This document shows positions 9,193 to 62,896 of a stretch of DNA of 64,000 nucleotides, in pieces. The stretch spans positions 74,793 through 138,792 of the forward strand of contig CAYQRE010000006.1 in NCBI GenBank assembly GCA_964420075.1, read 5' to 3'. The position numbers and the translations under genes are program-made. The notes below the pieces were generated by a model. That model had not been told where the DNA came from. It searched no databases and worked only from the letters and a program-made list of their open reading frames with translations. Source of the DNA: an uncultured Thermoanaerobaculia bacterium (GTDB lineage Bacteria; Acidobacteriota; Thermoanaerobaculia; Multivoradales; SZUA-115). How positions within the stretch are numbered: position 1 is the stretch's first letter; every line of letters starts with the position of its first letter.

Positions 9193-9202
9193 AACGAGGC
9201 GC

Positions 9203-23834: not shown

Positions 23835-23851
23835 CTGGCGGGAGGTGCACC

Positions 23852-26800
23852 TTGTCGCGACCCTGGAGCAGCCACCTTCGCCGCGCGCTCCCCGGCCTTG
23901 TCGCCGTGCTCCTCGCCATCGTCGCCGGGCGCGGTATCGGCGAGCGAGAGCGGGCCCTGGAAGCCGCTGCGTCGGCTCCTCGCCTGGGGCTCCTCGTCGA
24001 GTCCTGCCGGCCGCTGTCGGCGATCGCCGAGGTCGGGATCGCCGCCGGCGACCGCCTCCTCTCCTGGCAGGAGGAGGGCCACCCCGCCGCGACGCATCCG
24101 CTCGGCACGCCCTTCGACTGGTGGGCGCTCGCCATCGAGGTCCTCCCCCGCACGGCCGTCGTCCTCACCGGCGAACGGCACGGCAAGCCGCAGAGCTGGC
24201 CGCTCGCCGCCGGCCTGGAGCTCGCCGTGGACGATGCGGTCCTCAGCCCGTCCCTGCCCACCGTCCTCGCTGCCCTCGACCGCCAGGCTCGCGCCGCCTT
24301 GGGGGACCGCAACCAGGCGCAGGCCGAGCAGGCCTGGACGCTGGCGGCCGAGGTCGCGAGCGAGCGCGGGCAGCCCCGCCTCGGCGCCTGGCTGCTCGCC
24401 GGAGGGGCCGAGCTGGCGGCGCGCCAGCGCAACGGGCCGGCGGCAGACGCCCTCTATGCAGCGGCGGCCGCGGCCCTTGCCGCCCAGCAGGACGCGGCGA
24501 CGGCGGCGCTGTTACGCCGCTGGGCACGCGCGCTCTTCCAACAAGGTGACCTCAGCCGGGCCCTGAGCACCGCAGAACAGTCGATCACGGCGGCCGAGCG
24601 ACGGGCCTCGCCGGGCCTGGACGAGGCCGAAGGCCGGCTCGCGGCCGGCTACTACCTCAACAAGCAAAGCCGGATCCCCGCCGCCGAAGAGCAGTACCGG
24701 GCCGCCCTCGCGACCTTCGAAAGCCTCGCCCCGGACTCGGCCGGGCGGCTGCTCACGCTCTCCCGGCTCGCCGGCCTGGCGCTGCGCCGAGGAGACCTCG
24801 CGGCCGCCAAGGCCACCCTGGCGCAGGCCAAACCGGCCCTGCCGAGGCTCGCTCCCGGTTCGCCTGTCGCCTCGGCCCTGTTCACCAACCTTGGAGTGGT
24901 GGCGGACTACAGCAGCGACTTCCCCCAGGCCGAGGCCTTCGCTCGGCGGTCGATCGCCATCGACGAGCGCATCGACCCGCAGGGGACCGAGGTCGTCTCG
25001 GGGCTGCTCAACCTCTCGGTGCTGACCCAGCTCAAAGGAGATCTGGGCGAGACCGAGGCGGTGCTGCGGCGGGCCCTGGCGATCCTCGAGCGGCGCGGCA
25101 CCCAGGAGATGTTGCAGGCCCTGGTGCTCAACAACCTGGGGATGCTGAGCAAGGAGCTGGGGGACATCGACGAGGCCGGCCGCTGCTTCCAGCGGGCGGC
25201 CGATCTGCTGCAGGTGCTGGCCCCGGATAGCCCCGAGAGGGCCTTGATGCAGAGCAACCTCGGGGTGATCGCCCTGCGGCGGGATGACTTCGAAGGCGCC
25301 TTCCAGGCCTTCCGCACCGCCGCCGACGACGTCGCGAGGCAAGACCTGCGGGGGCCCGTGGCAAGTCAGCCGCTCATCCACCTGAGCCTCCTCGAGCTGC
25401 GCCGTGGCGAAGACCTCGGGGCTGCCGAGCGCTACCTCGCGAGGGCCGAGGCCATCCACTTCGAGGGCCAGAGCCCGCAGGACCGCGAGCGCCTGCTCGG
25501 CAACGAGATCCGCGCCGAGATCGCCTTGCGGCGCGGCGAGGTGGCCCGGGCGCGCCAGGCGCTCACCGATGCCCTGCGCTTCACCCGCAAGGCCTTCCCG
25601 GGGACCACCAACGAGGCGACGATCCTCGCTCAGACGGCGCGGCTCGAGCGCGATCATGGCAATCCGCACCGCGCCGCCGAGCTCTACTGCGAGGCGACCC
25701 GCGTGCTCGACCACCAGCGCACCCGCCTCGCCGACAGCGACACCCAGCGCCTGCTGTTCAGCGCCACCTACGCCGAGATTTACCAGGACTGTGCCGAGGC
25801 CCTGCTGGCGATCGGCGAGCCCGAGGCGGCCTTTCAAGCCGTCGAACGCGGGCGGGCTCGGCGCTTCTTGAGCCTGCTGCGCGAGCGCGACCTGCGCTTC
25901 GCCGACCTGCCGCCGGAGCTCCTCGCCGAGCGCCAGCGCCTCGACCAGCTCTTCGACCTCACACAGCGCAGCCTCCTCGGCCTGCCCGCCGGCAGCCCGG
26001 AGGCAGCGTCGACGATCGAGGAGCTGCGCGACCTCGAGCGGCAGCGCGAGGTGATCGCCCAGCGCGTCCGTGCCGCCTCGCCCCGCCTCGCCGCGCTCGA
26101 AGACCCCACACCGCTCGACGCCGTCGGTGCCCGCCAGGCCCTCGACCCCGGCACTCTGCTCCTGAGCTTCGTCGTCGGCAAGGAGGCGACGCTGCTCTTC
26201 GTGGTCGCCGGGCCCGGGAGCGGAGGGGCCGCGGCCACCAACCCGGCTGGCCTCGACGCCTACCGCCTGCCCGTCGGCGCGGCGGCGCTCAACGACAGCG
26301 CTCGCCACCTGCGCCAGCTGGCCGAGGACCCCGCCTCCTCGACCGCCGAGCTCGACCCCTTGGCGAGCGAGCTCTACGACCAGCTCCTGAAGCCCGCCGA
26401 GGCACGGATCGCGGCTGCCGACCGCCTGTTGATCTCCGCCGACGGCCCCTTGGCTGGCCTGCCGTTCGCCGTGCTCCGTCACAACGGCCAGTACCTCGCT
26501 CTGAGCAAGCCTCTGCACCGCGCCGCCTCGGCCACCGTCTACGCCGAGGTGCTGCGGCAGCGGGCGGCCCCCAGCGCGGCGCCGCTCGCCGCCTTCGGCG
26601 ACCCCAACTACAGCGGCCTGCGCCACTCGACCCTGGCGCAACAAGACCCGACCCTCACCCGTGCCGCCGCCAACGGCCTCCGTCTCGACCCCTTGCCCGG
26701 TACCCGCAGCGAGGTGGAGGGCATCGCAGCCCTGTTCCCCAACGCCGAGGTCTTCCTGGGCTCGGCCGCTACCGAGGAGGAGGCCCGGCGTGCCTCGCCC

Positions 26801-27256
26801 ACCTCACGGATCATCCACTTCGCCTGCCACGCCGTGCTCGACGAGCGCCTGCCCCTCAACTCGGCGCTGGTCCTCAGCCAGCCCGCGGGCAACACCAGGA
26901 GCGAGAACAACGGTCTGCTCCAGGCCTGGGAGATCTTCGAGAGCCTGCGTCTCGACGCCGACCTGGTGACCCTCTCGGCGTGCAACAGCGGCCTCGGCAG
27001 GGAGCTCAGCGGCGAGGGGATGATCGGCCTCACCCGCGCCTTCCAGTTCGCCGGCGCGCGCACCGTGCTCGCCTCGCTGTGGGCCGTCTCCGACCGCTCG
27101 ACGGCCAAGCTGATGCCCCGCTTCTACGCCCGCCTGCGCGACGGACTGCCGAAGGACGCGGCGCTGCGCGAGGCGCAGCGGGCGCTCGCCGCCGAGCCCG
27201 CTACCGCCCATCCCTTCCACTGGGCGGCCTTCGAGCTGGTGGGGGACTGGCGCTAG
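23852..27256 (+). CDS. Second PDZ–TPR–CHAT protein (tandem paralog)
   Basis: TTG start 18 nt after the stop of the first gene, with GGAGG 7 nt upstream. Same architecture (PDZ-like 'VGIAAGDRLLSW', TPRs, CHAT 'IIHFACHAVLD…LVTLSACNSG'). C-terminal ~250 aa nearly colinear with gene 1. Confidence 0.78.
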   Translation: MSRPWSSHLRRALPGLVAVLLAIVAGRGIGERERALEAAASAPRLGLLVESCRPLSAIAEVGIAAGDRLLSWQEEGHPAATHPLGTPFDWWALAIEVLPRTAVVLTGERHGKPQSWPLAAGLELAVDDAVLSPSLPTVLAALDRQARAALGDRNQAQAEQAWTLAAEVASERGQPRLGAWLLAGGAELAARQRNGPAADALYAAAAAALAAQQDAATAALLRRWARALFQQGDLSRALSTAEQSITAAERRASPGLDEAEGRLAAGYYLNKQSRIPAAEEQYRAALATFESLAPDSAGRLLTLSRLAGLALRRGDLAAAKATLAQAKPALPRLAPGSPVASALFTNLGVVADYSSDFPQAEAFARRSIAIDERIDPQGTEVVSGLLNLSVLTQLKGDLGETEAVLRRALAILERRGTQEMLQALVLNNLGMLSKELGDIDEAGRCFQRAADLLQVLAPDSPERALMQSNLGVIALRRDDFEGAFQAFRTAADDVARQDLRGPVASQPLIHLSLLELRRGEDLGAAERYLARAEAIHFEGQSPQDRERLLGNEIRAEIALRRGEVARARQALTDALRFTRKAFPGTTNEATILAQTARLERDHGNPHRAAELYCEATRVLDHQRTRLADSDTQRLLFSATYAEIYQDCAEALLAIGEPEAAFQAVERGRARRFLSLLRERDLRFADLPPELLAERQRLDQLFDLTQRSLLGLPAGSPEAASTIEELRDLERQREVIAQRVRAASPRLAALEDPTPLDAVGARQALDPGTLLLSFVVGKEATLLFVVAGPGSGGAAATNPAGLDAYRLPVGAAALNDSARHLRQLAEDPASSTAELDPLASELYDQLLKPAEARIAAADRLLISADGPLAGLPFAVLRHNGQYLALSKPLHRAASATVYAEVLRQRAAPSAAPLAAFGDPNYSGLRHSTLAQQDPTLTRAAANGLRLDPLPGTRSEVEGIAALFPNAEVFLGSAATEEEARRASPTSRIIHFACHAVLDERLPLNSALVLSQPAGNTRSENNGLLQAWEIFESLRLDADLVTLSACNSGLGRELSGEGMIGLTRAFQFAGARTVLASLWAVSDRSTAKLMPRFYARLRDGLPKDAALREAQRALAAEPATAHPFHWAAFELVGDWR

Positions 27257-51239: not shown

Positions 51240-52571
51240 GTGAGCAAGCAAGCGGATCGAAGCCTCGAGAGCACGCGGCTGCGGAACTGGCTCGTCTCCC
51301 GATTGTGGATGGTCGGCCTGGCCTTGGCACTCACCCTCGGCGGCCTGTTCCTCTCCGGGCATCGGCAGTTCTTCGTGCCCGGAACCACCTCCGACGGGCA
51401 CCACCTCCTTGAGCCATCCTGCAATTCCTGTCACAAGGGCTTCGCCCCGATCGCCAACGACGACTGTGTCAGCTGCCATCGCCCGGAGCTGGCGAGCGAC
51501 ACCCACCCCGTGCGCACCTTCGACGATCCACGGTGGGCGAGCGACCTGAAGGAAATTAACGCCCTTCGCTGCGTCACCTGTCATCACGAGCACAAGGTGG
51601 CCGCCGGTGGCGTCACCATCCGCCGCGAGTTCTGCTACCCCTGCCACGACGACGTGGTTGCCAAGCGGGCCAGCCACAAGGACCTCTCCCCCTCGTCCTG
51701 CGGCGACGCCGGCTGCCACAACTACCATGACAACTCTGGCCTCAACACCGCGGTGCTCACCGCTGCCCTGGGGCAACCCGACCAGCTGGCGGAGCCCGCA
51801 GTGCTGGCACGGCGCCTCGTCCCGGAGCCCGCCGGACCGCACCTGGCTCCCGACGCTCCTGCCGGCGTGACCGCTCCGGCCGCCCTCGTCCAGGCCTGGG
51901 ACGGCAGTGTCCATCGGCGAGCCGGGGTCGGCTGCTCGGACTGCCATGGCAAGGGCGAGGCCTTCGCCTTGCGGCCTGGCTTCGCCGCCTGCAAGACCTG
52001 CCACGGCTTCGAGGTCGATACCTTCGGTGCTGGGCAGCACGGGGTGCGCACACGCCTCGACCTCGAGCCGCTGCGGCCGGCGGACGCGCGATCCCCGATG
52101 GCTGCCGGGGCGTCGCGGCTGCACCCCGAGCATGGCTGTGGCTCCTGCCACGACGTGCACTCGGTCGACACCCGCCACGCGGCCACCGAGGCCTGCCTCG
52201 ACTGTCATGCAGACCGCCACAGCCTGGCCTTCGGCTCCTCTCCCCACGCCCGCGGCGCAACCCAGCTCGATCCTCACGACGGGCGGGCCGTCACCTGCGC
52301 GACCTGCCACCTGCCCCGGGTCGAGGTCGAGGAGAAGGGCGCCGTGAGGGTGGCGACCAACCACAACAACAGCCTGACCATGCGACCGATCGATCGCATG
52401 GCCCGCCTGGTCTGCAACCGCTGCCATGGCTATGAGCTGTCCCTCGCCAGCCTGCTCGACCCGCAGGCCGGGGCCAGCAATTTCGCTGCGAAGCCGTCTT
52501 CCCGGGCGCGCAGCTTCCTGATGGTGGAGGCTGCCCGCCTGGGTCGGCAGCCGGAAGGAGGAGGACGATGA
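51240..52571 (+). CDS. Membrane-anchored multiheme c-type cytochrome (10 × CxxCH + 1 × Cx4CH)
   Basis: GTG start with GAGAGGGG RBS. N-terminal TM helix 'LWMVGLALALTLGGLFL'. Heme motifs CNSCH, CVSCH, CVTCH, CYPCH, CGDAGCH, CSDCH, CKTCH, CGSCH, CLDCH, CATCH, CNRCH. Confidence 0.85.
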   Translation: MSKQADRSLESTRLRNWLVSRLWMVGLALALTLGGLFLSGHRQFFVPGTTSDGHHLLEPSCNSCHKGFAPIANDDCVSCHRPELASDTHPVRTFDDPRWASDLKEINALRCVTCHHEHKVAAGGVTIRREFCYPCHDDVVAKRASHKDLSPSSCGDAGCHNYHDNSGLNTAVLTAALGQPDQLAEPAVLARRLVPEPAGPHLAPDAPAGVTAPAALVQAWDGSVHRRAGVGCSDCHGKGEAFALRPGFAACKTCHGFEVDTFGAGQHGVRTRLDLEPLRPADARSPMAAGASRLHPEHGCGSCHDVHSVDTRHAATEACLDCHADRHSLAFGSSPHARGATQLDPHDGRAVTCATCHLPRVEVEEKGAVRVATNHNNSLTMRPIDRMARLVCNRCHGYELSLASLLDPQAGASNFAAKPSSRARSFLMVEAARLGRQPEGGGR

Positions 52572-53161
52572 TGGCAAGAGCTTGGTGCAGCAAGGGTCGC
52601 GTCGTCGCCGGCGTCGTCGGCCCAGCCCTGATCACCTGCCTGACCGCTTGCGGTGGCAGCGCTGCGAAACCGGCAGGGATCGCGCCCGAGCAGGCGGTCG
52701 ACTACATCCACGCCGTGATCGAGGCTGATCGCAGTGTCTACGCCGAACGCGTGGTGCAACGCCTGCAGAACACCGAGGGCGTGATCAAGGCCAGCGAGCA
52801 TTTCGAGGCCGACAAGGCCCTGCCACTGCCGGCCCAGATGTTGCGCATGGGCTCGCAGGCGGCGGCCGAGAAGGGCGACTTCCGCTACGCCCTGATCAGC
52901 CAGTGGGCGATCAACAAAGCCAACCTGCCGAAGACGGATGCCGAGAAAGCCGGGATGGAGCAGGTGATCGCCGATCCCTCCAAGCCCTATCGCAGCTATC
53001 TGACGGTGAATGGTCGCCGCTACTTCATGGCCATCTACGCCGACCGCGCCGTCTCCCCGGCGTGCGTCAAGTGCCACAACGAGCACCAAGAGAGCCCGCG
53101 CCACGACTTCACACCCGGCGACGTGATGGGCGGCGTCGTCGTCACCCTTCCCCTCGACTGA
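52568..53161 (+). CDS. DUF3365-like (Tll0287-type PAS-like) c-heme lipoprotein
   Basis: ATGA overlap with the cytochrome stop and GGAGGA RBS. Lipobox 'LITCLTACGG'. A single C-terminal 'CVKCH'. About 190 aa, the size and layout of the DUF3365/Tll0287 heme-PAS family. Confidence 0.6.
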   Translation: MMARAWCSKGRVVAGVVGPALITCLTACGGSAAKPAGIAPEQAVDYIHAVIEADRSVYAERVVQRLQNTEGVIKASEHFEADKALPLPAQMLRMGSQAAAEKGDFRYALISQWAINKANLPKTDAEKAGMEQVIADPSKPYRSYLTVNGRRYFMAIYADRAVSPACVKCHNEHQESPRHDFTPGDVMGGVVVTLPLD

Positions 53162-53179
53162 CCTGGAGCGAGATCGGAC

Positions 53180-53767
53180 ATGCGTACGGAAACTCTGCGT
53201 TGGGAATTTCGGGTCCTGCCTTGGCTGGCGTTGCTCGGCGTCATCGTGCTGGCTCTCCTACCCCTCAGCATCTCCCTGCTGGGAGCCTTGCCGTTGTCGG
53301 AGAACATCCGTCTCCTCGGCAAGCTCTCGGAGAGCCACCGCTTCCGCGAGCTTACGGGCTACGGCGCCCTTGCCCTGGTCGCCTTCGAGGGGCTGCTCAT
53401 CCTCCACAAGCGGGGCAAGCTACCGTTCATGCCCGGCAACCGCATTAGCTGGCGTTCGGCGCACATCTTCGTCGGCGCGTCGCTGATCCCGTTGGTCGTC
53501 ATCCATACCGGCGGCCGCTGGGGGAGCAACCTCAACGGCGCCCTGCTGCTGAGCTTGATGGCCGTCGTGCTGATCGGGGTGGCCGGTAAGCTGATCGAAG
53601 CGATTCACTTGCAGCGCAACGTCCAGAGTGCCAAGGCCGAGGCCGGCAAAGAGGGAGGCCGGCGGCGCGCGCCCATGCATACCTACTGGCTACGGCTCCA
53701 CATGATGCTGGCGACGGTGCTGGTCGCCCTGCTGGGCTTCCACATCTTCAGCGTCTACTACTTCTAG
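53180..53767 (+). CDS. Small polytopic membrane protein, probable di-heme cytochrome b (DUF4405-like)
   Basis: 195 aa with 4–5 TM helices and conserved intramembrane His ('LILHKRG', 'SAHIFVG', 'VVIHTGG', 'GFHIFS'). Third gene of the cytochrome operon. Confidence 0.55.
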   Translation: MRTETLRWEFRVLPWLALLGVIVLALLPLSISLLGALPLSENIRLLGKLSESHRFRELTGYGALALVAFEGLLILHKRGKLPFMPGNRISWRSAHIFVGASLIPLVVIHTGGRWGSNLNGALLLSLMAVVLIGVAGKLIEAIHLQRNVQSAKAEAGKEGGRRRAPMHTYWLRLHMMLATVLVALLGFHIFSVYYF

Positions 53768-53880: not shown

Positions 53881-54420
53881 TCAGGCTGACAGGACGCGGA
53901 CACGAATCTGCGTCGAAGGCGCGTCGTCGCCTCCCTCACAGATGATCTCCACCCTCTCGCCGTAGTACCCAGCGACACCGCGCACGATGCCGCGAGCCAA
54001 CGCTGCCATCTTGCGGGGCGACCGATAGAGGATCGTCACCTCGTTGTCGCCGGTGCGCGAGCAGACCAACGCCGGCGGCTTGGCCTGGCGGTTGCGCGTC
54101 CGCACGATGTGGTGGATGGTGCTCTCGACGTTGGTCAGGAACTCGAGGGTCTTCCACTTGGGGTCGATCAACGGCCGGTAGATCGTCACCAGATCAGCCC
54201 CGATGAACTGGCCGAAGTCCTCCAGGATGTTCGGCACCGGGATCCCCGTGATCTTCGAGGCCGTGACGACGATCCCCACCGCCTCCTCGTCCGGGTACAT
54301 GAGGAAGTTCTCGTACTCCTTCTTGCCCAACCCGGCCTGCTCGAGCACTGCGATCCAGGCTTCGCGGCCGAGCTTCGACTCGACGTATTTTTTTATTTCC
54401 GAGAAAATAAATCCGTGCAC
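53881..54420 (-). CDS. hnoX: Stand-alone H-NOX (heme nitric oxide/oxygen-binding) sensor protein
   Basis: 179 aa. Aligns along its length with Tt H-NOX: N-terminal 'MHGFIFSEIKKYVESKLG', proximal-His region 'ESTIHHIV', heme-propionate Y-x-S-x-R motif 'ILYRSPRKMAALARGIV', and C-terminal 'TQIRVRV'. GTG start with GAGGGA RBS. Confidence 0.85.
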   Translation of the reverse strand: MHGFIFSEIKKYVESKLGREAWIAVLEQAGLGKKEYENFLMYPDEEAVGIVVTASKITGIPVPNILEDFGQFIGADLVTIYRPLIDPKWKTLEFLTNVESTIHHIVRTRNRQAKPPALVCSRTGDNEVTILYRSPRKMAALARGIVRGVAGYYGERVEIICEGGDDAPSTQIRVRVLSA

Positions 54421-54460
54421 CGTTGACTCCCTCGGTGGCGAATGATGACCCGGGAGCTGT

Positions 54461-55294
54461 CTAGCTCAGCTCGCCGACGGCGGCCAGCAGCTTGGGCTCG
54501 TACTTCTTCATGATGGCCCGCGCGAGCCCGAGATTGCCACGCCGGCCCACCGCCAGCACGTGGTAGTAGTCCTTGCCCATCGGGCGGATGAGGACGTAGA
54601 TCTTCTCGGTGGAGATCAGGATGTCCTCCGTCGAGCCAGCCCCCATCCCCAGCAGGTCGAGGGCCCGGCCGTTTGCCTTGACCACCTCGGCGTAGGACGC
54701 CGCGGCCACCGAGGCATCGAAGTCCGGGTCGATGGAGCCGCCGCCGATGGACAACCCGCTGTCCACGTTGACGATGTCCGTCGAGACGAACTCAGGGACC
54801 TCCTCGCGAAACGACTCCAGCACCTTGTGCAACGTGTTCATGCTCCCCTCCTCCTTGAGGTCCGTCCACCAGCCATCCTCGATCGGCACCACGGGGGCCA
54901 GCTCGGGACGGTCCTCCGTCTTCTTCCGCTCGTCGTCGCGCCGGCTGCTCTCGAGCAGCAGCATGGTCAGCGAGCACTCGATCCGCGGCGTGCGGTCGCC
55001 GGCAAAGGTCTTGATCTCGATGTCGTTGCTCCGCCAGCCGATGAGCTCGTAGGCGGCGTCCTCCCCCTGGAGATCCCCTACCTCGGCGTCGATCAGGGCA
55101 CCGTCCAGGAAGAAGAGGTGGCCCACCCGATCGGCCGCGTACACGCACACCAGGCACGTGGTCTTCTCGATCGAGACCATCTGCAGCACGGTCGGCAGGC
55201 TGATCCCCTGGACGTAGCCGAGGAAGTCCTGCACCTCGATGCGGTTGCGCAGCTCGAAATTGGAGATCGCCATGCTCAACCTAGGTAGTTTCAT
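54461..55294 (-). CDS. PATAN (DUF4388) domain + Roadblock/LC7 (MglB-like) domain protein
   Basis: N-terminal 'VQDFLGYVQGISLPTVLQMVSIEKTTCLVCV…HLFFLDGALIDA…GEDAAYELIGW' fits the DUF4388/PATAN pattern. C-terminal 'EFVSTDIVNVDSGLSIGG…AASYAEVVKANGRALDLLG…KIYVLIRPMGKDYYHVLAVG' fits Roadblock/LC7. Confidence 0.65.
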   Translation of the reverse strand: MKLPRLSMAISNFELRNRIEVQDFLGYVQGISLPTVLQMVSIEKTTCLVCVYAADRVGHLFFLDGALIDAEVGDLQGEDAAYELIGWRSNDIEIKTFAGDRTPRIECSLTMLLLESSRRDDERKKTEDRPELAPVVPIEDGWWTDLKEEGSMNTLHKVLESFREEVPEFVSTDIVNVDSGLSIGGGSIDPDFDASVAAASYAEVVKANGRALDLLGMGAGSTEDILISTEKIYVLIRPMGKDYYHVLAVGRRGNLGLARAIMKKYEPKLLAAVGELS

Positions 55295-55325
55295 CCCTCA
55301 CGGTTTTCGGGACACACCAAGAAAG

Positions 55326-55913
55326 TCAATCTGCTTCACTCATGACTCGTACGAGTCCTTCGCGGAGTGTGTGCACCAACTCCCGGCGCACCGGCTGGCT
55401 GACCACGAAGCCGAGGATGTAGCGGCCGAGGGCAGTGTCGGCCTGCAGCAGCTCGAGGACCTGGCCGCGATCCAGGTCGATCGAGACCGAACCCAGGATC
55501 GGTGACTCCAGGCAGGAGTGGAGCCGGTCGAGCAGGCTTACGAAGGAAGCCGCCACCGCCACCATCACTGGGTCGGAGTTCTTCTCCATGAGGACGAAGC
55601 CCTCGGCATCCGCCACGAAGAGCCGGCGGCAGCCAGTGAGCTCCAAGATAAACGCGAAGTAGGTCTTCAGGCGGACCTGCAGGGGGGCCCCGCTCGGCAG
55701 GCGAAGGCCCTCGGCCTCACCGGCCATGGCCCCGCGTGGGGCAACCGGCGGGGCCGGCGGCGGCGAGCTCCACAAAGAGCCGGCCGGCCAGGGTTGGAAA
55801 CCGCCATCTCCCGCGACCGGGGCCGGAGACGCCGGCGGCCGCGCCATGAGGCCTGCTCGCGCCAACGTGGCAGCGAGCTCCGCCGGCTCAATCCAGGAGA
55901 GAGATCGGCTCAT
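55326..55913 (-). CDS. Roadblock/LC7 (MglB-like) domain protein with Pro-rich N-terminal extension
   Basis: 'YFAFILELTGCRRLFVADAEGFVLMEKNSDPVMVAVAASFVSLLDRL…GRYILGFVVSQ' fits the Roadblock/LC7 fold pattern. Overlaps the upstream ATPase gene by 26 nt. Confidence 0.6.
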   Translation of the reverse strand: MSRSLSWIEPAELAATLARAGLMARPPASPAPVAGDGGFQPWPAGSLWSSPPPAPPVAPRGAMAGEAEGLRLPSGAPLQVRLKTYFAFILELTGCRRLFVADAEGFVLMEKNSDPVMVAVAASFVSLLDRLHSCLESPILGSVSIDLDRGQVLELLQADTALGRYILGFVVSQPVRRELVHTLREGLVRVMSEAD

Positions 55914-56697
55914 CGGCGCTTTCCTCGCGCAGGAGCCCCAGGCGAGGCTCGAGCTCGGCAGCGATCTGGTCGAAGACGGCCGCCACGGGCGGCGGCCGAC
56001 GGCTGAGCAGCCCGATCGGCACGCCGTAGGCGCTCGCTTTGAGAAAGGCGGGGTCGCGAGGCACGAAGCCGTTGAGCACCAGCTCGGGGGGAAGCGTGCT
56101 CCAGCTCTCCTGGGCCACGGTCAGTGAGACGTCGCTCCGCGAATTGAGCATGCTGACGACAAAGCCCACCACCTCGACGCGCGCGCCGCGCTCGCGCAAC
56201 TGGCCGAGACGATTGAGCAGCTGGGTGATCGACCGCAGCGCCAGTGGTTCCGCCTGCAGGGGCACCAGCGCATGGTCGGCCAGCTCGAGAGCGACGGCGG
56301 CAGGTCCTTGCAGCCCCGAGGGCGTGTCCACCACGACGAGGTCGTAGAGCGGCCGCAGGCTGTCGAAGACTCGCCCCATCTTGTCGCGGTCGGCGAGGAG
56401 CTGGTCCTGCTCGGGGTCGCTCGGCAGGCCGGCCGCGCCGGCCACCGGCAGCACTGCCAGCTCCGGGAGATGGGTCTGGAGGATCGCTTCCTGGAGACCG
56501 ATACGGCCTTCGAGATGAGCGAGCAGGCCCTGCCCGCGGCGGTTGGCACCCTGTACCGACAAGCCCACGGCACCGAGCGGGTCGACGTCCATCACGAGCG
56601 TCTTCCAGCCGCGGCGGGCCAGCGCATAGCTGAGATTGAGAGCGACAGTGGTCTTGCCGACTCCGCCCTTCTGGCTCACGACTGCGAGCAAGGCCAT
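55888..56697 (-). CDS. MinD/ParA-family (SIMIBI-class) P-loop ATPase
   Basis: Internal ATG giving 'MALLAVVSQKGGVGKTTVALNLSYALARRGWKTLVMDVDP' with the deviant Walker A KGGxGK[ST]. 'LVVVDTPSG' is the Walker B. 269 aa. Confidence 0.8.
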   Translation of the reverse strand: MALLAVVSQKGGVGKTTVALNLSYALARRGWKTLVMDVDPLGAVGLSVQGANRRGQGLLAHLEGRIGLQEAILQTHLPELAVLPVAGAAGLPSDPEQDQLLADRDKMGRVFDSLRPLYDLVVVDTPSGLQGPAAVALELADHALVPLQAEPLALRSITQLLNRLGQLRERGARVEVVGFVVSMLNSRSDVSLTVAQESWSTLPPELVLNGFVPRDPAFLKASAYGVPIGLLSRRPPPVAAVFDQIAAELEPRLGLLREESADEPISLLD

Positions 56698-56826
56698 CGT
56701 CCCCTTCCGCGCGGCGAACCGCGAAGCAACATCGATCGGACGCCCGCGTCCCCGTGAATCGAACGTGTGAAAGAGGCTGAATCCTGCCACAGATACGGAC
56801 TTCCGCGCAAGCTTGTTTGTATGTAT

Positions 56827-56844
56827 TTTGTAGGCACGTACAAA
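56827..56844. promoter_or_regulatory. Palindrome TTTGTA-N6-TACAAA in the AT-rich region upstream of the ParA-like/Roadblock/H-NOX operon
   Basis: Read directly from the sequence, about 130 bp upstream of the ATPase start. A candidate operator or promoter element. Confidence 0.35.
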
Positions 56845-56924
56845 GAATATTTGGTCCTGGCTCTAGGCCTTGCGGAGCGCTGCGGAGGCCCCGAGCCGGG
56901 AGTTGGTTCCGGGCTCAGGAAAAT

Positions 56925-56941
56925 ATTTCGGATGCCGAAAT
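56925..56941 (-). terminator. Small hairpin ATTTCGG-ATG-CCGAAAT followed, on the minus strand, by ATTTTCC (possible terminator of the DUF420 gene)
   Basis: 7-bp perfect stem. On the minus strand it lies about 55 nt after the DUF420 stop, with a short U-rich tail. Confidence 0.3.
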
Positions 56942-56995
56942 GAGATAGGGCGGACGATCTTGGCTTCGCGCGGACGCCGAAGGGGGTGGGCCTTC

Positions 56996-57412
56996 CTAGA
57001 GCTTGTACAGCATCCAATACACCACGACGCCCGTCACCGAGACGTACAGCCAGATCGGCAGCGTCCAACGGGCCAGGCGGCGGTGGCGCTCGAAACGCCC
57101 CCGCAGGGCCAGCACGAGCACCATGACGGCGAGGATCGGCACCAACGCCGCGAGAATGGTGTGCGAGGCGAGGATCGCCAGGTAGGCAGTGCGCAGCGCT
57201 CCGGTCCCCGCGAACCGGCGCGAGCCCGTTTCGGCGTGGTAGATGAGATAGGAGATCAGGAACAGGATGGAGCTGGCGAAGGCGGCGGTCATCACCACGC
57301 GGTGCGCCGTGCGCCGACCGCGGCGGATGAGCAGGTATCCGGCGACGAGAAGGAGTGCCGAAAGGCTGTTCAGCAGGGCATTGAGGGCTGGCAGCTGGCT
57401 CGTCGCAGGCAT
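56996..57412 (-). CDS. DUF420-family membrane protein (cytochrome-oxidase-associated)
   Basis: Internal ATG 'MPATSQLPALNALLNSLSALLLVAGYLLIRRG…'. 138 aa, 4 TM. C-terminal 'WLYVSVTGVVVYWMLY' is typical of DUF420. Confidence 0.65.
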   Translation of the reverse strand: MPATSQLPALNALLNSLSALLLVAGYLLIRRGRRTAHRVVMTAAFASSILFLISYLIYHAETGSRRFAGTGALRTAYLAILASHTILAALVPILAVMVLVLALRGRFERHRRLARWTLPIWLYVSVTGVVVYWMLYKL

Positions 57413-57509
57413 GGTGGCGGGAGGAGTTTGCGGCACCGCGCGGCGAAGAGCAATCCCCGGGGCGGCGTTGCCGCGGGGCCAGACCGCTCCGGCCCCGCGA
57501 CGCAGTGGC

Positions 57510-59165
57510 TCACGGGTCAGAGATCGGTGCCGTCCAAATCTCCTCCTTGCCTCCGCTGCGGCGGTCGGTCCAGGAGGGGAAGAACTTGCCGAGGAAACCC
57601 GAAAGGCCGTTGTAGTCGCCGTACTGGTTGCCGAGGTTGGCGCTCGACTGGGTCTCATCGGTCTGCGCGGTGGTGACCTGCAGCGGCGCCGACCAGGTCA
57701 CACCGTCGTTGCTGGAAGACTGATAGTAGACGTGGGTCTTCAAGCGCGCCGAGTCGGCCACCGTGTCGTAGTACATGATGCCGACCGTACCGTTCGATTC
57801 GTCGACCGCCAAGAACTGGTTGAATTGATCGTTCTTCGACGCCTGGTTGTTGATCTTCACCGGCGCCGACCAAGTGGCTCCGCCGTCGGTCGAGCGCGCG
57901 AACCAGATGCGCGTCTTGCAGCTCGAGGCCGCATTCGAGCCTGGTTCGTTGGCGGCAGCGGTGCAGCCGGTCTCGCCGGAGAGGTCGGTCCAGGAGACGT
58001 AGACGTTGTTCTTGGTCGCCGTGCGATAGGCCGCTCCAGAGGTGTAGATCAGGGCACGACGGCTGTTGAACGAAGGCACGCCGATGTCGTAGCCGTCGTA
58101 CATCGTGGCGACGACCACCGCCGTCGACCAGGAGGCCCCGCCGGTGGTCGACTTGCGGACGACGACCCGGCGGTTGCTCGTGGTGGGCCAAAAGGCGAAG
58201 ACGTCGCCACTGCTGTTGGTCTTGATGTCGCAGCCGATCGCCGTGCCCGTGGACTCCGAGCCGCTGACCTGCACGGGCGTCTGCCAACCGGCGCTGGTAC
58301 GCCGTCCGACGTAGGCCGGGTTCCCGTTGTGGTAGCAGACGTAGACGTTGTCGCGGAAGGAGGAGCTGGCGCTGTGGTCGACCCACATCAGCTCCTTGTC
58401 GGTGCTGCGCTGGCTGCCCGACACCGTCCCGTCGAAGGTCCAGGTCACGCCGCCGTCGGTCGATCGGTAGGCCCGGGTCTTGAGAGTGTTGCCCTTGATG
58501 CCGAGGGTCACGGCCCAGGCGGTGCCATCGGAGGTCCAGTCCACGGCGGGGTCCGAGTGGAAGCTGTCCGTACTCGCCAAGGGTAGCTCGGTACGCCCCC
58601 AGGTCGCGCCGCCGTCCGACGAATAGAACTGGGCCTGCCGGCCAGTGCCGCCGATGTTGTTGGAGGCGGCGATGATCTGGTTGGGGGCCAGGAAGTTGAT
58701 CCTGATGTCGGATTCGCTGTGCGGGCTGGGCTGCGCGGTCGAGATCCGGCGATCGGCCGCCACCGAGGCCTTGTCCGCCCCCGCCAGCTCCTCCGCTCCC
58801 GGCTTGCCGGGCTCGAGGTCCTGGTGGGTCAGCATCCACTGGTGGATCTCTTTCAGGACGTGCGGATAGCCGCCCGTCGGGTCGTCCGCCGCGTAGACCG
58901 CTCCCGGGTGCCCCTTGCGCCACCAGACACGCAGCCACAGGGGCAAGCGACGTCCGTCCACGAGCTCATCGGCCCGGAGCAGGGCGAAGTCCTGGTTGGT
59001 GCGCACCAGCTGCGCCAACGCTGTCCCCGGCCGGATCTGATCGACCGCGAGCTGCTCCGTCAACGTGGGAGGGCCCTGGCGGCCTGGAGCAGCCCAGGCG
59101 GCCAGCGAGAGAAGGGACGACCCGAGGCAGCACAGCGCAGAGACCAAGACAAGCTTCGATTTCAT
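57510..59165 (-). CDS. Secreted BNR/Asp-box repeat β-propeller protein (sialidase-like fold)
   Basis: Signal peptide 'MKSKLVLVSALCCLGSSLLSLAAWA'. At least five Asp-box repeats (SSDGGATWG, STDGGVTWT, STTGGASWS, STDGGATWS, SNDGVTWS). Confidence 0.75.
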   Translation of the reverse strand: MKSKLVLVSALCCLGSSLLSLAAWAAPGRQGPPTLTEQLAVDQIRPGTALAQLVRTNQDFALLRADELVDGRRLPLWLRVWWRKGHPGAVYAADDPTGGYPHVLKEIHQWMLTHQDLEPGKPGAEELAGADKASVAADRRISTAQPSPHSESDIRINFLAPNQIIAASNNIGGTGRQAQFYSSDGGATWGRTELPLASTDSFHSDPAVDWTSDGTAWAVTLGIKGNTLKTRAYRSTDGGVTWTFDGTVSGSQRSTDKELMWVDHSASSSFRDNVYVCYHNGNPAYVGRRTSAGWQTPVQVSGSESTGTAIGCDIKTNSSGDVFAFWPTTSNRRVVVRKSTTGGASWSTAVVVATMYDGYDIGVPSFNSRRALIYTSGAAYRTATKNNVYVSWTDLSGETGCTAAANEPGSNAASSCKTRIWFARSTDGGATWSAPVKINNQASKNDQFNQFLAVDESNGTVGIMYYDTVADSARLKTHVYYQSSSNDGVTWSAPLQVTTAQTDETQSSANLGNQYGDYNGLSGFLGKFFPSWTDRRSGGKEEIWTAPISDP

Positions 59166-59338
59166 CTCCAACCTCCGTGATTGAGGCCAAGCGTGCAGGG
59201 GGCGACCCGGCAAGGGGGACGACGCACGAACACCATGACCTCGGTTGAGGAGGAGAAGCTGCCAGACTATCTCCGTGTAGAGATATTACGAACGAAAGAA
59301 AATTTCGATAGTAGTGGCGCAGTATCAATAAGGTGTCG

Positions 59339-59359
59339 CGTGGTTCGGCTCGAACCACG
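59339..59359 (-). terminator. Perfect 9-bp hairpin CGTGGTTCG-GCT-CGAACCACG downstream of the SCO1 gene
   Basis: Read directly from the sequence, 35 nt past the SCO1 stop on the minus strand, in an AT-richer spacer. Only a weak U-tract. Confidence 0.4.
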
Positions 59360-59393
59360 TCGAGACCTCCAGGTCGACGCTAGGGGGTCGAAG

Positions 59394-60029
59394 CTATGGC
59401 TCTGGTGAGTTGCCCTCGCGCTGGACGGCGCGGGCGTCGCGAACCAGGCGGTCGAGGTCGGCGGGCTCGAAGGGATTGTAGAAGCCCCGGAGGCCACCGT
59501 CGCCGTCGACGAGGATCAGTCGCGTGGCGTGGATCACTGGCCCTTGCTCGGGTGGACTGTCGACCCCGGCGGGAGCGACCCCCAACTTGAAACCCGAGAT
59601 CGACAGCTCCCAGATCGCTTGCCGGTCACCCGTGAGGAAGAGCCAATCGTCCCCGGCGCCGAAGCGGCGAGCGTACTCGTCGAGCACGGTCGGCGTGTCG
59701 TGCTCGGGGTCCACGGTGATCGACACCCTGAGCACGCCCTTGGGCAACCGAGGCCCAATCTCGGCCAGTCGCTGGGTCATCAGCGGGCACGGGCCCGGGC
59801 ACCGCGTGTAGATGAAGTCCGCGATCCAGACGACCCCGGCGAGATCGTCGAGGCGCACGTCTCTGCCATCGCGGTTGCTGAGGACAAAGCCCGGCAAGTA
59901 GGCGACGACCTGCGGCGCCGGGCGCCGGGCCTCGGTGCGGCTGCGCTCGAGCGCCACGACGCCGACCACAGCCAGGACCGCCACCAGCACCAGCCAGAGG
60001 AACCCCCGCAGGGCGGTTCGTCGGTCCAT
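59394..60029 (-). CDS. SCO1/SenC-family copper chaperone (thioredoxin fold)
   Basis: N-terminal TM anchor. 'FIYTRCPGPCP' is the SCO CxxxC copper-binding motif, and a conserved His lies in 'DPEHDTP'. Confidence 0.8.
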   Translation of the reverse strand: MDRRTALRGFLWLVLVAVLAVVGVVALERSRTEARRPAPQVVAYLPGFVLSNRDGRDVRLDDLAGVVWIADFIYTRCPGPCPLMTQRLAEIGPRLPKGVLRVSITVDPEHDTPTVLDEYARRFGAGDDWLFLTGDRQAIWELSISGFKLGVAPAGVDSPPEQGPVIHATRLILVDGDGGLRGFYNPFEPADLDRLVRDARAVQREGNSPEP

Positions 60030-60089
60030 CGCTCTCAGAGCTCCTCCGCGCTCGCCAGGTGGCCTGCCGGCACGCCGCCGGCAGCCGAG

Positions 60090-61010
60090 CTAGCCGGCGA
60101 GCAGGCGGTCGATCAGGGTGAGCAGGAAAATCCCCGGCAGGTAGAAGACCGAGGTCAGCAGCACCCGGCGAGCCGTCGGTTGGCCGGGTAGATGGGCGAA
60201 GCGGAAGCAAGCAGTGAGATAGAGGAGTCCGAGGACCAGCGTGCCGGCGAAGTAGGTCAACCCGGTCAGCCGGAGAGCGGAGGGCAGCAGGCTCACCGGG
60301 ATCAGCGCCGCACCCCAGAGCAGCATCTGAAAGGCCGTCGCCCGGCCGTCGCGATCACCGACCGTCAGCAGCGGAAAGCCGCCCCGTGCGTAGTCTTCGC
60401 GGTACATCCAGGCAATCGCCAGAAAGTGCGGCATCTGCCAGAAGAAGAGCAGCCCGAAGAGGGCCCAGGCACCGGGCTCGAGGCCGCCCGTCGCCGCCGA
60501 CCAACCCATCATCGGCGGAATGGCCCCCGGCACCGCACCCACCACCGTGGCGAAGGAGGTCTGGCGCTTGAGCGGCGTATAGACGAAGACGTAGCCGGCC
60601 ACGGTGAGGGCACCGAGCAATGCCGTCAGGGGACGCGCCCAGGTGAGCAGCACCAGCAGGCCAGCGGTCACCAGGGTGAGACCAAAGAGCAGGGCGCTCT
60701 CAGGATCGACCCGCCCCGTTGGCAGCGGCCGCTGGGCGGTGCGTCGCATGCGGGCATCGTGGCTGCGCTCGAGCAGGTGGTTGAAGGTGCCGGCGCCCGC
60801 CGAGAGCAGTCCGGTGCCGAGGACGGCAGCCATGAAGCCGAGCCACCCGGTGTGCTCCGCACCCACTGAGCGCCCGCCGAGCAGGTAGCCAGCCGCGGCG
60901 GTGACCGCGACCATCGAGGTGATCCGCGGCTTGGTGAGCTCCACCCAGTCGGCCAAGCGGGCCGCCGGCACGGAGTCGCCGGGGACGAGATCAGCACGCT
61001 CTAGCTGCAT
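60090..61010 (-). CDS. ctaB: Protoheme IX farnesyltransferase (heme O synthase)
   Basis: UbiA-family motifs 'NHLLERSHDARMRRTAQRPL' and 'YTPLKRQT', with 8–9 TM helices. 306 aa. Confidence 0.85.
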   Translation of the reverse strand: MQLERADLVPGDSVPAARLADWVELTKPRITSMVAVTAAAGYLLGGRSVGAEHTGWLGFMAAVLGTGLLSAGAGTFNHLLERSHDARMRRTAQRPLPTGRVDPESALLFGLTLVTAGLLVLLTWARPLTALLGALTVAGYVFVYTPLKRQTSFATVVGAVPGAIPPMMGWSAATGGLEPGAWALFGLLFFWQMPHFLAIAWMYREDYARGGFPLLTVGDRDGRATAFQMLLWGAALIPVSLLPSALRLTGLTYFAGTLVLGLLYLTACFRFAHLPGQPTARRVLLTSVFYLPGIFLLTLIDRLLAG

Positions 61011-61304
61011 GGGGCGCGCTCGCTGCCGCCGCGTTCACGGCTGGGGTGACGAAGAGGCATGGGCTGGTGGTGGGCTCCGTTCGACACCCCCGACCATCGA
61101 GGGATCGGGCGAGTGTACCGCAGTTGGGTCGCCCACCGTCCTTGCCGACCACCGCAAGCACGGGCGAAGCGCCGGGCTCCTCGCGCCGGGCCCGATCGAG
61201 AGGAGATATCGAGACGCTATAGTGACGAGAGTGCGACGGCAGCCGCCGAACGACGCCGAACCACTGACGCCAACCGGGGAGGGGCGCCCCATGACGAGCC
61301 GCAC

Positions 61305-62054
61305 GTGAGCCGCAGGCACCCGCACCACAAGCCAGCTCATTGCCTGGTCTGTGGCAAGGCAGGGGGCGCGATCGAGCTCGAGCCCGTCGCGCTGCTGCGA
61401 CCGCCGCTCCTCGCCATGCTCAAGGCCGAGCACCCGGACTGCGGAGCGGACTCCTACCTCTGCACCTCCGATCTCAACCGCTACCGGGCTCGCTATGTGG
61501 CCGCCCTGCTCTCCGAGGAGAAGGGTGAGCTGACCGCGATCGAGCGCGACGTGGTGCGGGGCCTCGCCGGCGATGAGCTGCTCAGCCAGGACACCAACCT
61601 CGAGTTCGACCGCCGGCTCAGCTTCGGCGAACGGCTGGCGGACCGCATCGCCACCTTTGGCGGCAGCTGGACCTTCATCCTCGCCTTCGCAGGCTTTCTC
61701 GGCGTCTGGATCGCCGTCAACAGCTGGCTCCTCCTGCACCGTCCCTTCGACCCCTACCCCTTCATCTTGCTCAACTTGATCCTCTCCTGCCTGGCAGCGC
61801 TCCAGGCCCCGGTGATCATGATGAGCCAGAACCGCCAGGAGGCGAAGGACCGCTTGCGGGCCGAGTACGACTACCGGGTGAACCTCAAGGCGGAGCTGGA
61901 GATCCGCTTGCTCTCCGAACGCATCGACCGGCTGCTCACCCACCAGTGGCAGCGCCTGCTCGAGATCCAGCAGGTCCAGGTGGAGCTGATCGAGCAGCTC
62001 GATGCCCGCAATCCGCGCCCTCCGGCGGCCAACCCGCAGCCTCCTCAACCCTAA
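61305..62054 (+). CDS. DUF1003-family membrane protein with N-terminal zinc-ribbon-like region
   Basis: C-terminal 'FGGSWTFILAFAGFLGVWIAVNSWLLLHRPFDPYPFILLNLILSCLAALQAPVIMMSQNRQ' is the DUF1003 core. Start uncertain: GTG at 61305. An upstream ATG at 61291 with a good RBS is out of frame. Confidence 0.55.
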   Translation: MSRRHPHHKPAHCLVCGKAGGAIELEPVALLRPPLLAMLKAEHPDCGADSYLCTSDLNRYRARYVAALLSEEKGELTAIERDVVRGLAGDELLSQDTNLEFDRRLSFGERLADRIATFGGSWTFILAFAGFLGVWIAVNSWLLLHRPFDPYPFILLNLILSCLAALQAPVIMMSQNRQEAKDRLRAEYDYRVNLKAELEIRLLSERIDRLLTHQWQRLLEIQQVQVELIEQLDARNPRPPAANPQPPQP

Positions 62055-62236: not shown

Positions 62237-62896
62237 ATGGCTCAATTCTTCCATCGCAGTACGAACACGATCGCCAAGGCCTCGATCTATGGAGGCGTGG
62301 TGGTCGCCGCCCTCGTGGGTTGGGGCATGCTCACCCTGTCGCGCTCGACGTATGTCACCAGGCAGGACGTGGTGCGCAAACAGCCGGTGCCCTTCAGCCA
62401 CGACCACCACACAGCGGGCCTGGGGATCGACTGCCGCTACTGCCACACCTCGGTTGAGGAGTCGGCCTTCGCGGGCATTCCGCCGACCCAGACCTGCATG
62501 AACTGCCACAAGCTGATCTGGACCAACGCCGAGATCCTCGAGCCGGTGCGGGCCTCGTGGCGCACCAATCAGCCGCTGCAGTGGGTGCGGGTCAACGACC
62601 TGCCGGACTTCGTCTACTTCAATCACTCGATCCACGTGGCGCGGGGAGTGGCCTGCGTGACCTGCCATGGGGCGGTGAACGAGATGCCCCTGATGCGGCA
62701 GGCCCAGTCACTGCAGATGGAATGGTGCCTCAACTGCCACCGCAACCCGGAGAAGTACGTCGGCTACAAGGACCAGGTGGTCAACTGGGACTGGAAGCCG
62801 ACGTCCCCCGAAGAGCAGCAGGACGTGCTCGGCCCCAAGCTGGTGCAGGAATACGGCATCCAGAGTCTCACCAACTGCTCGACCTGCCACCGCTAG
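62237..62896 (+). CDS. actA: Alternative Complex III pentaheme cytochrome c subunit
   Basis: N-terminal TM anchor. Five CxxCH motifs (CRYCH, CMNCH, CVTCH, CLNCH, CSTCH). Directly followed by an actB-like gene. Confidence 0.8.
   Translation: MAQFFHRSTNTIAKASIYGGVVVAALVGWGMLTLSRSTYVTRQDVVRKQPVPFSHDHHTAGLGIDCRYCHTSVEESAFAGIPPTQTCMNCHKLIWTNAEILEPVRASWRTNQPLQWVRVNDLPDFVYFNHSIHVARGVACVTCHGAVNEMPLMRQAQSLQMEWCLNCHRNPEKYVGYKDQVVNWDWKPTSPEEQQDVLGPKLVQEYGIQSLTNCSTCHR

Follow-up and report, generated by a model that had tools for sequence, protein, structure and literature searches.

What does a stand-alone H-NOX haem sensor act on when none of the usual partners is encoded beside it? The question is raised by a 64,000-nucleotide stretch of contig CAYQRE010000006.1 (hereafter the window) from an uncultured Thermoanaerobaculia bacterium, in which the gene for an H-NOX protein follows those for a ParA/MinD-type ATPase, a 195-residue protein that we call P2, and a fusion of a PATAN (DUF4388) domain with a Roadblock domain. 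Bacterial H-NOX proteins are partnered by histidine kinases, cyclic di-GMP (c-di-GMP) enzymes or chemoreceptors, while the NTPases that Roadblock-fold proteins have so far been known to regulate are Ras-like GTPases. Our starting observations are the identities of the domains, the haem-ligating motifs, the order and coupling of the genes, the way in which cluster and sub-modules are conserved, and the missing canonical partners. From them we give a probability of roughly 50% to the reading that the four genes form a conserved signalling cassette, in which an H-NOX protein responsive to nitric oxide (NO) or redox state would act through a Roadblock platform on a ParA-type ATPase.

The four genes and their products

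Four consecutive open reading frames (ORFs) run in the same direction on the minus strand at 53881-56697, with the third-position G+C bias of coding sequence, in the 5′ to 3′ order ParA-like gene, P2, PATAN–Roadblock and H-NOX (coordinates in Table 1). An earlier note on this DNA, made from the sequence, had described four co-directional, tightly spaced or overlapping genes, and all four ORFs lie where that note had placed them; the window sequence is moreover identical to WBZL01003545.1 (assembly GCA_009612995.1), in which the same genes are called. The start of P2 overlaps the 3′-end of the ParA-like gene by 26 nt, the gap between P2 and the PATAN–Roadblock gene is 31 nt (52 nt with a start at Met8), and a further 40 nt separate the latter from the H-NOX gene, whose GTG start codon stands seven bases after GAGGGAG. 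The ATG of the ParA-like gene at 56697 is preceded by a ribosome-binding site, GGAAGGGG.

By every sequence criterion tested, the last of these proteins is a bona fide member of the H-NOX family. It scores 116.7 bits against the HNOB profile, with a cut-off of 25.5 (E = 1.2e-33), residues 2-159 spanning profile positions 1-161 of 163, and it aligns over its full length with solved chains that include 6ocv (5.7e-17), 2kii/4u9b, the Alr2278 chains from Nostoc, and soluble guanylate cyclase beta1. Its His103 is aligned to histidine 103 of 2kii/4u9b and its YRSPR to their YxSxR; we take these chains to be Shewanella H-NOX and their histidine 103 to be the proximal haem ligand. Together with the full-length match, the invariance of His103, Pro115, Tyr132, Ser134 and Arg136 (Y132-R-S134-P-R136) in 68 of 68 H-NOX homologues upholds the identification as a stand-alone H-NOX domain. 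At position 141, nine residues after Tyr132, the window protein has leucine and all 68 homologues have leucine, valine or isoleucine. This position corresponds to the distal Tyr140 of the O2-binding Thermoanaerobacter H-NOX, and because of the residues found there an NO-selective sensor is suggested, if not proven. Many of the homologues also touch PF02830. We considered whether the protein could instead be a V4R hydrocarbon-binding protein and rejected this, given the invariant haem motifs and the full-length matches to solved H-NOX chains. A motif C-[ML]-x-x-G-x-x-x-C, which resembles V4R/H-NOX zinc or redox sites, is present near the C terminus (residues ∼160-172) in 52 of the 68 homologues; the window protein keeps only its first cysteine (EIICEGGDDAPST).

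The gene directly upstream encodes the PATAN–Roadblock fusion that the sequence had been taken to contain, and its two halves are supported in different ways. DUF4388 is matched by Pfam above the gathering score at residues 26-124 (1.7e-10, 41.4 bits against a cut-off of 25). Robl_LC7 has no Pfam match in the window protein at E ≤ 0.1, and the Roadblock assignment comes from the predicted fold and from a profile match to MglC. An AlphaFold2 (AF2) model built from a 26-sequence alignment has a mean pLDDT (predicted local distance difference test) of 84 and two confident domains: a separate PATAN domain at residues 24-127, and a second domain at residues 151-274 with the alpha-beta-beta-alpha-beta-beta-beta-alpha order of Roadblock proteins. 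This second domain superposes on MglB with a TM (template modelling) score of 0.85, and the family profile reaches MglC (7ct3) at 3.3e-4 by sequence alone; a related REC-PATAN protein in locus L038 does match Robl_LC7. The window protein has no REC domain, which is fused to PATAN–Roadblock in several lineages. PATAN itself is optional, being absent in L019, L020, L022, L031 and L034.

The first gene encodes a deviant-Walker-A ATPase of the MinD/ParA type, as proposed before. Pfam AAA_31 (8.5e-27) and CbiA (5e-18) match it, as do the BcsQ, ParA and MipZ models, its Walker A sequence is SQKGGVGKTT (family pattern K-G-G-x-G-K-[ST]), and its closest solved chains are ParA 8ray (4e-22), Soj and MinD. 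None of the named subfamilies among the NCBIfam equivalogs (MinD, partition ParA, BcsQ, FlhG/FleN, CpaE/Ssd) comes near its cut-off, with scores of 80 against 180 for ParA_partition and 70 against 213 for minD_bact, so that the ATPase belongs to the ParA/MinD family but stays unclassified within it. We find orthologues in 17 loci. When the C termini of 13 of them were read directly, no amphipathic membrane-targeting helix of the MinD type was seen; the C terminus is acidic, with a conserved ...E-x-PI[PS]LLD.

P2 was the hardest of the four to place. It begins with an N-terminal peptide (residues 1-21, 55851-55913), continues in a variable Pro/Ala linker and ends in a domain of ∼120 residues (55329-55688). 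The peptide follows the pattern M-x-x-S-L-S-W-I-[DE]-P..L..L.RAG (MSRSLSWIEP...L..L.RAG in the window protein) and is conserved in about 118 of 149 family members. Public gene calls give P2 173 residues; since the peptide is conserved in positional orthologues, we take the ATG at 55913, and thus a protein of 195 residues, as the true start. A word-indexed homologue search with P2 returned only 2 matches, and an exhaustive HMMER search with the C-terminal 121 residues was needed to recover a family of 153 cluster representatives, nearly all of ∼200 residues with the domain at the C terminus. The window protein itself has no match in Pfam or NCBIfam. Among 149 relatives scanned with Pfam, five match Robl_LC7 (best 6.9e-5) and three match LAMTOR5 (best 6.5e-6), and no other fold family recurs. 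Profiles of 12 and of 149 P2 sequences gave only noise against the sequences in the PDB (E ≥ 0.3), hhalign of P2 profiles against the PATAN–Roadblock family was not significant (P = 0.17 for the trimmed domains, in an alignment spanning the full domain length), and an AF2 model from a 3-sequence alignment reached a pLDDT of 41 and was discarded. Because the few family matches stand beside negative profile–profile and PDB searches and a failed model, we grade P2 as probably, and not provenly, a divergent member of the Roadblock superfamily. The earlier assignment of the 195-residue protein to Roadblock/LC7 is thus no more than probable: a few of its relatives match, the window protein has no match of its own, and the more sensitive searches were not significant.

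Conservation of the cluster and of its sub-modules

Loci for comparison were taken from a genome scan with the PATAN–Roadblock alignment (25 loci), from a metagenome scan (13, several of them duplicates of genome loci) and from twelve look-ups of contigs that encode homologues, with the window proteins mapped by tblastn and jackhmmer. All four genes are found together in at least 17 non-identical loci (Table 2), in which the H-NOX protein is between 73% and ∼48% identical to that of the window and the genes are still overlapping or closely spaced in all of them. The loci are mainly from Acidobacteriota (Thermoanaerobaculia and relatives): the named sources comprise Thermoanaerobaculia, further Acidobacteriota and Vicinamibacteria, and two short contigs are labelled Chloroflexi and Methylomirabilota. 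Around the cluster, L004 has DUF1015/aminotransferase genes and MscS, L019 and L020 have pentapeptide repeats and an MFS transporter, the P0131 contig has Band_7 genes, and L054 has a beta-helix protein. Since these flanking genes differ, shared ancestry of the whole region does not explain the recurrence, and since the cluster recurs with different flanks, the juxtaposition is not due to chance; the gene arrangement is selected. The earlier note had allowed that the four genes might never be co-localised in related genomes, and the comparison instead found them together again and again amid unrelated flanks.

The constant core of these loci is the Roadblock–H-NOX pair, and ParA–P2 is a detachable sub-module. 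At least 23 loci have a Roadblock gene directly beside an H-NOX gene, as a rule with 15-80 nt between the two, and ParA and P2 co-occur in every locus that has either, P2 always following ParA with overlapping stop and start codons. In Aminicenantes the Roadblock–H-NOX pair is present without ParA and P2, sometimes in duplicate (Table 2), so the ATPase is not obligatory for the function of the pair. A sensor-less HisKA/HATPase_c kinase and a sigma-54 response regulator divergently adjoin the Aminicenantes loci, and with the REC fusion found beside them they indicate that phosphorelay input is part of the wider family. The suggestion that H-NOX has a ParA-type partner therefore needs qualifying: the cluster is conserved, but the invariant association is that of H-NOX with Roadblock and not with ParA. 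Neighbour-joining places the Roadblock-linked H-NOX proteins in two clades, outside which fall the orphan H-NOX proteins of L005, L008 and L009, whose genes have respiratory or unrelated neighbours.

Two sets of relatives extend the picture beyond H-NOX. In locus L038 (2013-4957), which belongs to a low-G+C lineage, the gene after a REC-PATAN-Robl_LC7 gene encodes a 163-residue protein without a Pfam match, genes for two V4R proteins come next, and V4R seems to stand in for H-NOX in this lineage. TRAPPC3, V4R and H-NOX are structurally related (PMC10933270). Given the V4R proteins of L038 and this structural kinship, the partnership may be one between Roadblock and the H-NOX/V4R fold class in general. 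A second REC-PATAN-Roadblock gene lies 4 kb away in the same locus and is followed by a similar protein of 165 residues. In Myxococcota (L021, L025 and L027, at ∼8000-9800) members of the same Roadblock subfamily, 55-65% identical to the window domain, precede a PATAN protein of ∼280 residues and a PilZ protein; these relatives have neither H-NOX nor ParA beside them.

Individual loci also depart from the common pattern in detail. The ParA-like and P2 genes of L037 (5612-6492) are apparently split, possibly by frameshifts or as a pseudogene, and H-NOX is called there at 251 residues. A large protein combining a Ser/Thr kinase, a 2Fe-2S ferredoxin, a nucleotide cyclase and a globin is encoded near the cluster in L020 (32-2362) and likewise in L019 and L022, where it constitutes a second haem-based sensor in the neighbourhood.

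The usual partners are missing. Among the ORFs scanned across the 64-kb window none has a kinase, GGDEF/EAL or small GTPase domain, in agreement with what the earlier note had stated, and no canonical H-NOX partner (histidine kinase, GGDEF/EAL protein or methyl-accepting chemotaxis protein) was found in the cluster, in these ORFs or in the 17 related loci; a kinase directly adjoins the H-NOX cluster only in the Aminicenantes variant. Nor was a gene of the Ras/MglA family found in the window ORFs scanned or in the Pfam-annotated flanks of the related loci. No operon of this kind turned up in literature searches that combined H-NOX with Roadblock, MglA, PATAN/DUF4388 or ParA, so far as the incomplete literature searched goes and with subscription journals as a possible exception; that the architecture is undescribed, as had been surmised, agrees with this result. 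The sole co-mention of these components is the structural remark in PMC10933270.

A linked redox trio and other neighbouring genes

Three genes that the earlier note had missed (Table 1) occupy 51240-53767 on the plus strand; they come directly after the H-NOX gene and converge on it. The first encodes a multihaem cytochrome c whose count of haem motifs is conserved in eight orthologues. The second encodes a Tll0287-like protein of stand-alone architecture (PF11845, 64.6 bits against a cut-off of 24.1) whose CVKCH is conserved in orthologues, and the third, which always follows it, a 195-residue membrane protein without a Pfam match, in which the invariant histidines of six orthologues lie in predicted transmembrane segments; this protein is possibly a dihaem cytochrome b-like subunit. 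Tll0287/DUF3365 has been described as a c-haem Cache domain, of which the members fused to signalling domains bind NO like H-NOX and NosP, whereas stand-alone members behave as redox proteins (bioRxiv 10.64898/2026.02.01.703092). From its composition, the trio would be a membrane or periplasmic electron-transfer complex. It is linked to the cluster in 11 loci, and this adjacency, together with its co-directional position in L036 and L043, ties the cluster to a periplasmic or membrane redox module.

On the other side, the intergenic region upstream of the cluster gave no match in a scan for the sigma-70 consensus, so that the cluster promoter is only presumed to lie there. The region contains a terminator-like hairpin at 56925-56941, after the DUF420 gene, and a palindrome, TTTGTA-N6-TACAAA, at 56836-56853, ∼145 nt upstream of the ParA start. 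L012 carries CAAGTA-N6-TACTTG at a similar distance upstream, and L011 a degenerate copy. An upstream operator shared across the clusters was considered and rejected, as the palindrome was not found in loci other than these three.

Further upstream on the cluster strand, at 56996-61010, are genes for DUF420, a BNR/sialidase-like protein, SCO1/SenC and a UbiA-family prenyltransferase. We read the UbiA-family gene as haem O synthase and the DUF420/SCO1/UbiA group as cytochrome oxidase biogenesis genes; SCO1 is near the cluster in L037 too, but apart from that other loci do not share this flank. A further multihaem cytochrome, smaller than the first (c7/c3-like, 219 residues), is encoded at 62237-62896 beside a DUF1003 protein (61059-62054). 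Elsewhere in the window are two large tandem TPR-CHAT proteins at 20574-27256 (1086 and 1199 residues; CHAT ∼2e-70 each), whose listed ORFs apparently overlap, and, on the minus strand at 14262-15494, adjacent DUF4143 (270 residues) and AAA_14 (133 residues, weak) ORFs that resemble a split gene for an AAA_14/DUF4143-type ATPase.

Table 1. Coordinates of the four-gene cluster, its domains and the linked trio in the window
Feature	Position	Strand	Remarks
ParA/MinD-family ATPase, 269 aa	55888..56697	-	Pfam AAA_31, CbiA; deviant Walker A
P2, 195 aa	55326..55913	-	N-terminal peptide, linker, probable divergent Roadblock/LAMTOR-like domain
PATAN–Roadblock fusion, 277-aa ORF, probably 270 aa from Met8 (55273)	54461..55294	-	
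PATAN domain	∼54914-55225	-	Within the PATAN–Roadblock gene
Roadblock domain	∼54473-54844	-	Within the PATAN–Roadblock gene
Stand-alone H-NOX, 179 aa	53881..54420	-	HNOB 1.2e-33, haem motifs
Upstream intergenic region, probable cluster promoter region	56698..56995	-	Lower G+C than surroundings
Membrane-anchored multihaem cytochrome c, 10 CxxCH and 1 variant motif	51240..52571	+	Cytochrom_c3_2 6e-14
Tll0287-like (DUF3365/sCache_haem) c-haem protein, one CxxCH, apparent lipoprotein signal	52568..53161	+	PF11845 1.7e-17
Membrane protein, 195 aa, four invariant His including HTGGR motif	53180..53767	+	Six-orthologue alignment

Table 2. Arrangements of the cluster genes and of the linked trio among loci
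Arrangement	Loci
ParA–P2–PATAN.Roadblock–H-NOX	window, L004, L011, L012, L014, L017, L037, L041, L043, L054, P0131 contig
ParA–P2–Roadblock (without PATAN)–H-NOX	L019, L020, L022, L031
H-NOX moved to front of cluster	L034, L036
REC-PATAN-Roadblock, H-NOX, H-NOX, Roadblock	L026, L028 (Aminicenantes)
PATAN-Roadblock, H-NOX, Roadblock, H-NOX (duplicated pair)	L029 (Aminicenantes)
Trio on same strand after cluster, seven co-directional genes	L036, L043
Trio directly after PATAN–Roadblock	L015, L042, L044
Trio convergent or divergent	window, L011, L012, L037, L041, P0131 contig

A proposed relay, its alternatives and its relation to known systems

How could a gas sensor be coupled to a positioning ATPase? 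Roadblock proteins generally form homo- or heterodimers and serve NTPases as platforms: MglB acts on MglA, MglC binds MglB, and the C-terminal domains of the LAMTOR/Rag proteins behave likewise. ParA/MinD ATPases, for their part, are controlled by the N-terminal peptides of partners such as ParB, MinE and McdB. Given these properties of Roadblock proteins, the ParA/MinD-partner layout of P2 and its translational coupling to the ATPase, we propose a relay from H-NOX to the ATPase, in which we infer all protein–protein contacts, the ligand, the direction of the signal and the target. The H-NOX protein, most likely NO-selective, would bind the MglB/MglC-like Roadblock domain of the PATAN–Roadblock protein; a direct complex of the two is the most economical hypothesis because of their strict adjacency, their duplication as pairs and the substitution by V4R. 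That Roadblock domain would pair with the probably Roadblock-like C-terminal domain of P2, and P2 would dock on the ATPase or stimulate it through its conserved N-terminal peptide. Ligand on H-NOX would then shift the ATPase between its ATP-bound and ADP-bound (dimer and monomer) states, and the output may be the placement, assembly or activity of a cellular structure. Candidate targets are the frequently co-encoded membrane complex of decahaem cytochrome, sCache_haem protein and cytochrome-b-like subunit, or whatever PATAN binds; PATAN regulators reportedly bind the type IV pilus motor in Synechocystis (bioRxiv 10.1101/2021.06.11.447907). In relatives that bear REC, a phosphorelay could feed the same Roadblock platform. 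A bolder form of the proposal is rather unlikely in our estimate: that Roadblock proteins control a SIMIBI-class ParA/MinD ATPase gated by a haem sensor, with the organisation or assembly of the multihaem cytochrome complex as output, and that the recurrent pairing of an H-NOX/V4R-fold protein with Roadblock proteins in bacteria has its counterpart in the core of Bet3 (V4R-like) and longin/Roadblock subunits in NTPase platforms of the TRAPP and Ragulator type.

Several findings weigh against the proposed cassette. The Aminicenantes version, with its neighbouring histidine kinase, does without ParA and P2; the more distant members of the H-NOX family, at most 50% identical, occur as orphans among unrelated genes; and L004, L019, L020, L022 and L054 have no cytochrome trio. 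The Roadblock fold of P2 was not established by hhalign, by the PDB profile search or by AF2, and its N-terminal motif lacks an invariant basic residue such as ParA activators use. An MglA-like GTPase could also be encoded elsewhere in the genome, as our search covered 64 kb.

One other explanation is that H-NOX acts in the canonical way, on an unlinked histidine kinase or other classical partner, the Roadblock, PATAN and ParA proteins being downstream or parallel operon-mates. The sensor-less kinase and sigma-54 regulator that lie divergently beside REC-PATAN-Roadblock and H-NOX in Aminicenantes would fit this, as would the fusion of REC to PATAN–Roadblock in several lineages (in L053 such a gene stands beside a kinase) and the histidine kinases that L019, L020 and L031 carry a few genes away from the cluster. 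We nevertheless consider it unlikely: none of the 17 loci has a kinase inside the four-gene unit, the scanned ORFs of the window include none, the PATAN–Roadblock protein encoded there carries no REC, and the tight Roadblock–H-NOX pairing, duplicated pairs included, argues for a direct partnership. The linkage to the trio in 11 loci, with the DUF420, SCO1 and UbiA-family genes flanking the window cluster and SCO1 near that of L037, would also suit a function in haem-protein assembly or cofactor delivery, the ATPase resembling maturation factors such as Mrp, NBP35 and CooC and H-NOX serving as a haem carrier. This seems quite improbable to us, as c-type haem is attached in the periplasm by the dedicated Ccm and Ccs systems, the five loci named above have the cluster without cytochrome genes, PATAN and REC are signalling and polarity domains, the gas-sensor motifs of H-NOX are all strictly conserved, and the DUF420/SCO1/UbiA flank is not conserved in other loci.

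The nearness of the Roadblock domain to MglB and MglC in both structure and sequence raises the further idea that the two Roadblock-type proteins regulate an unlinked MglA-like GTPase, the ParA-like ATPase then being an effector or target in its own right. That PATAN genes neighbour mglA and mglB is known (PMC4316618), and the Myxococcota relatives, next to PATAN and PilZ genes and free of ParA and H-NOX, point the same way. Against it, neither the window nor any Pfam-annotated flank of the related loci contains a Ras/MglA-family gene, and ParA is strictly coupled to P2 wherever it occurs, which leaves this idea little likelihood. That the four genes stand together by chance might be argued from the orphan contexts of the distant H-NOX homologues; the locus comparison effectively refutes it, as at least 17 loci repeat both the gene set and its order, amid different flanks and with short or overlapping junctions kept.

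The signalling cassette that we favour shares parts with several known systems without coinciding with any of them. The H-NOX operons of Shewanella, Vibrio and Legionella likewise encode a stand-alone H-NOX of ∼180 residues beside its presumed target, with the proximal histidine, Pro115 and YxSxR and with a distal pocket that is non-polar, as in NO-selective members; the partner there is the HnoK kinase or a GGDEF/EAL enzyme, whereas here it is a Roadblock protein with PATAN, P2 and a ParA-type ATPase, in an operon without enzymatic signalling output. The MglA–MglB–MglC system of Myxococcus and Thermus combines, as the window cluster probably does, two Roadblock-type proteins with an NTPase, and the fold of the PATAN fusion resembles its Roadblock members (by the MglB superposition and the MglC profile match), but its NTPase is a Ras-like GTPase, in place of which the window has a SIMIBI-class deviant-Walker-A ATPase, and the window unit includes a haem sensor. 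In MinD–MinE, ParA–ParB, PomZ–PomXY and McdA–McdB, a deviant-Walker-A ATPase is followed by a coupled small partner, and P2 is built like such partners, its conserved N-terminal peptide being joined by a flexible linker to a dimerisation-type domain at the C terminus; the window ATPase differs in falling below all equivalog cut-offs and in lacking a MinD-like amphipathic helix, and its partner in having a probably Roadblock-like domain.

Of the PATAN regulators, PatA of Anabaena and the PixG-type proteins of Synechocystis share DUF4388 with the window protein, and REC-PATAN forms occur among its relatives, but the window protein has no REC, its PATAN domain is N-terminal to Roadblock, and PATAN is dispensable in some orthologous clusters. 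The Streptomyces conservon (CvnA kinase, CvnB Roadblock, CvnC and CvnD NTPase) is similarly a four-gene cassette of sensor, Roadblock, small protein and NTPase, with a membrane kinase as sensor instead of H-NOX; the window NTPase is of the ParA type, and the window cluster has no DUF742 protein. Finally, the TRAPP and Ragulator complexes of eukaryotes and Asgard archaea join the H-NOX/V4R/TRAPPC3 fold class to Roadblock-fold proteins and an NTPase (for the kinship, see PMC10933270). The resemblance is one of parts only: no TRAPP subunit is homologous at the level of sequence, the NTPases are of different classes, and the window system is known from its genes.

The cluster points to stand-alone H-NOX signalling with a new class of partner and a new output. 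If the proposed cassette holds, a fourth, conserved and non-enzymatic class of H-NOX partner would widen the view of NO and redox signal transduction, and regulation of the Roadblock/MglB type would extend to ParA/MinD ATPases, joining the fields of polarity GTPases and ParA-based positioning in a shared module open to direct test. All four proteins are soluble and of small size, which makes the predicted contacts accessible to in vitro work that needs no culture of the source bacterium. In the bolder form of the proposal, NO sensing would govern how a respiratory multihaem cytochrome complex is assembled or arranged in space, in place of phosphorylation or c-di-GMP as output. The link to the trio suggests a handle on how respiratory electron-transfer complexes are regulated and organised in the poorly studied Acidobacteriota.

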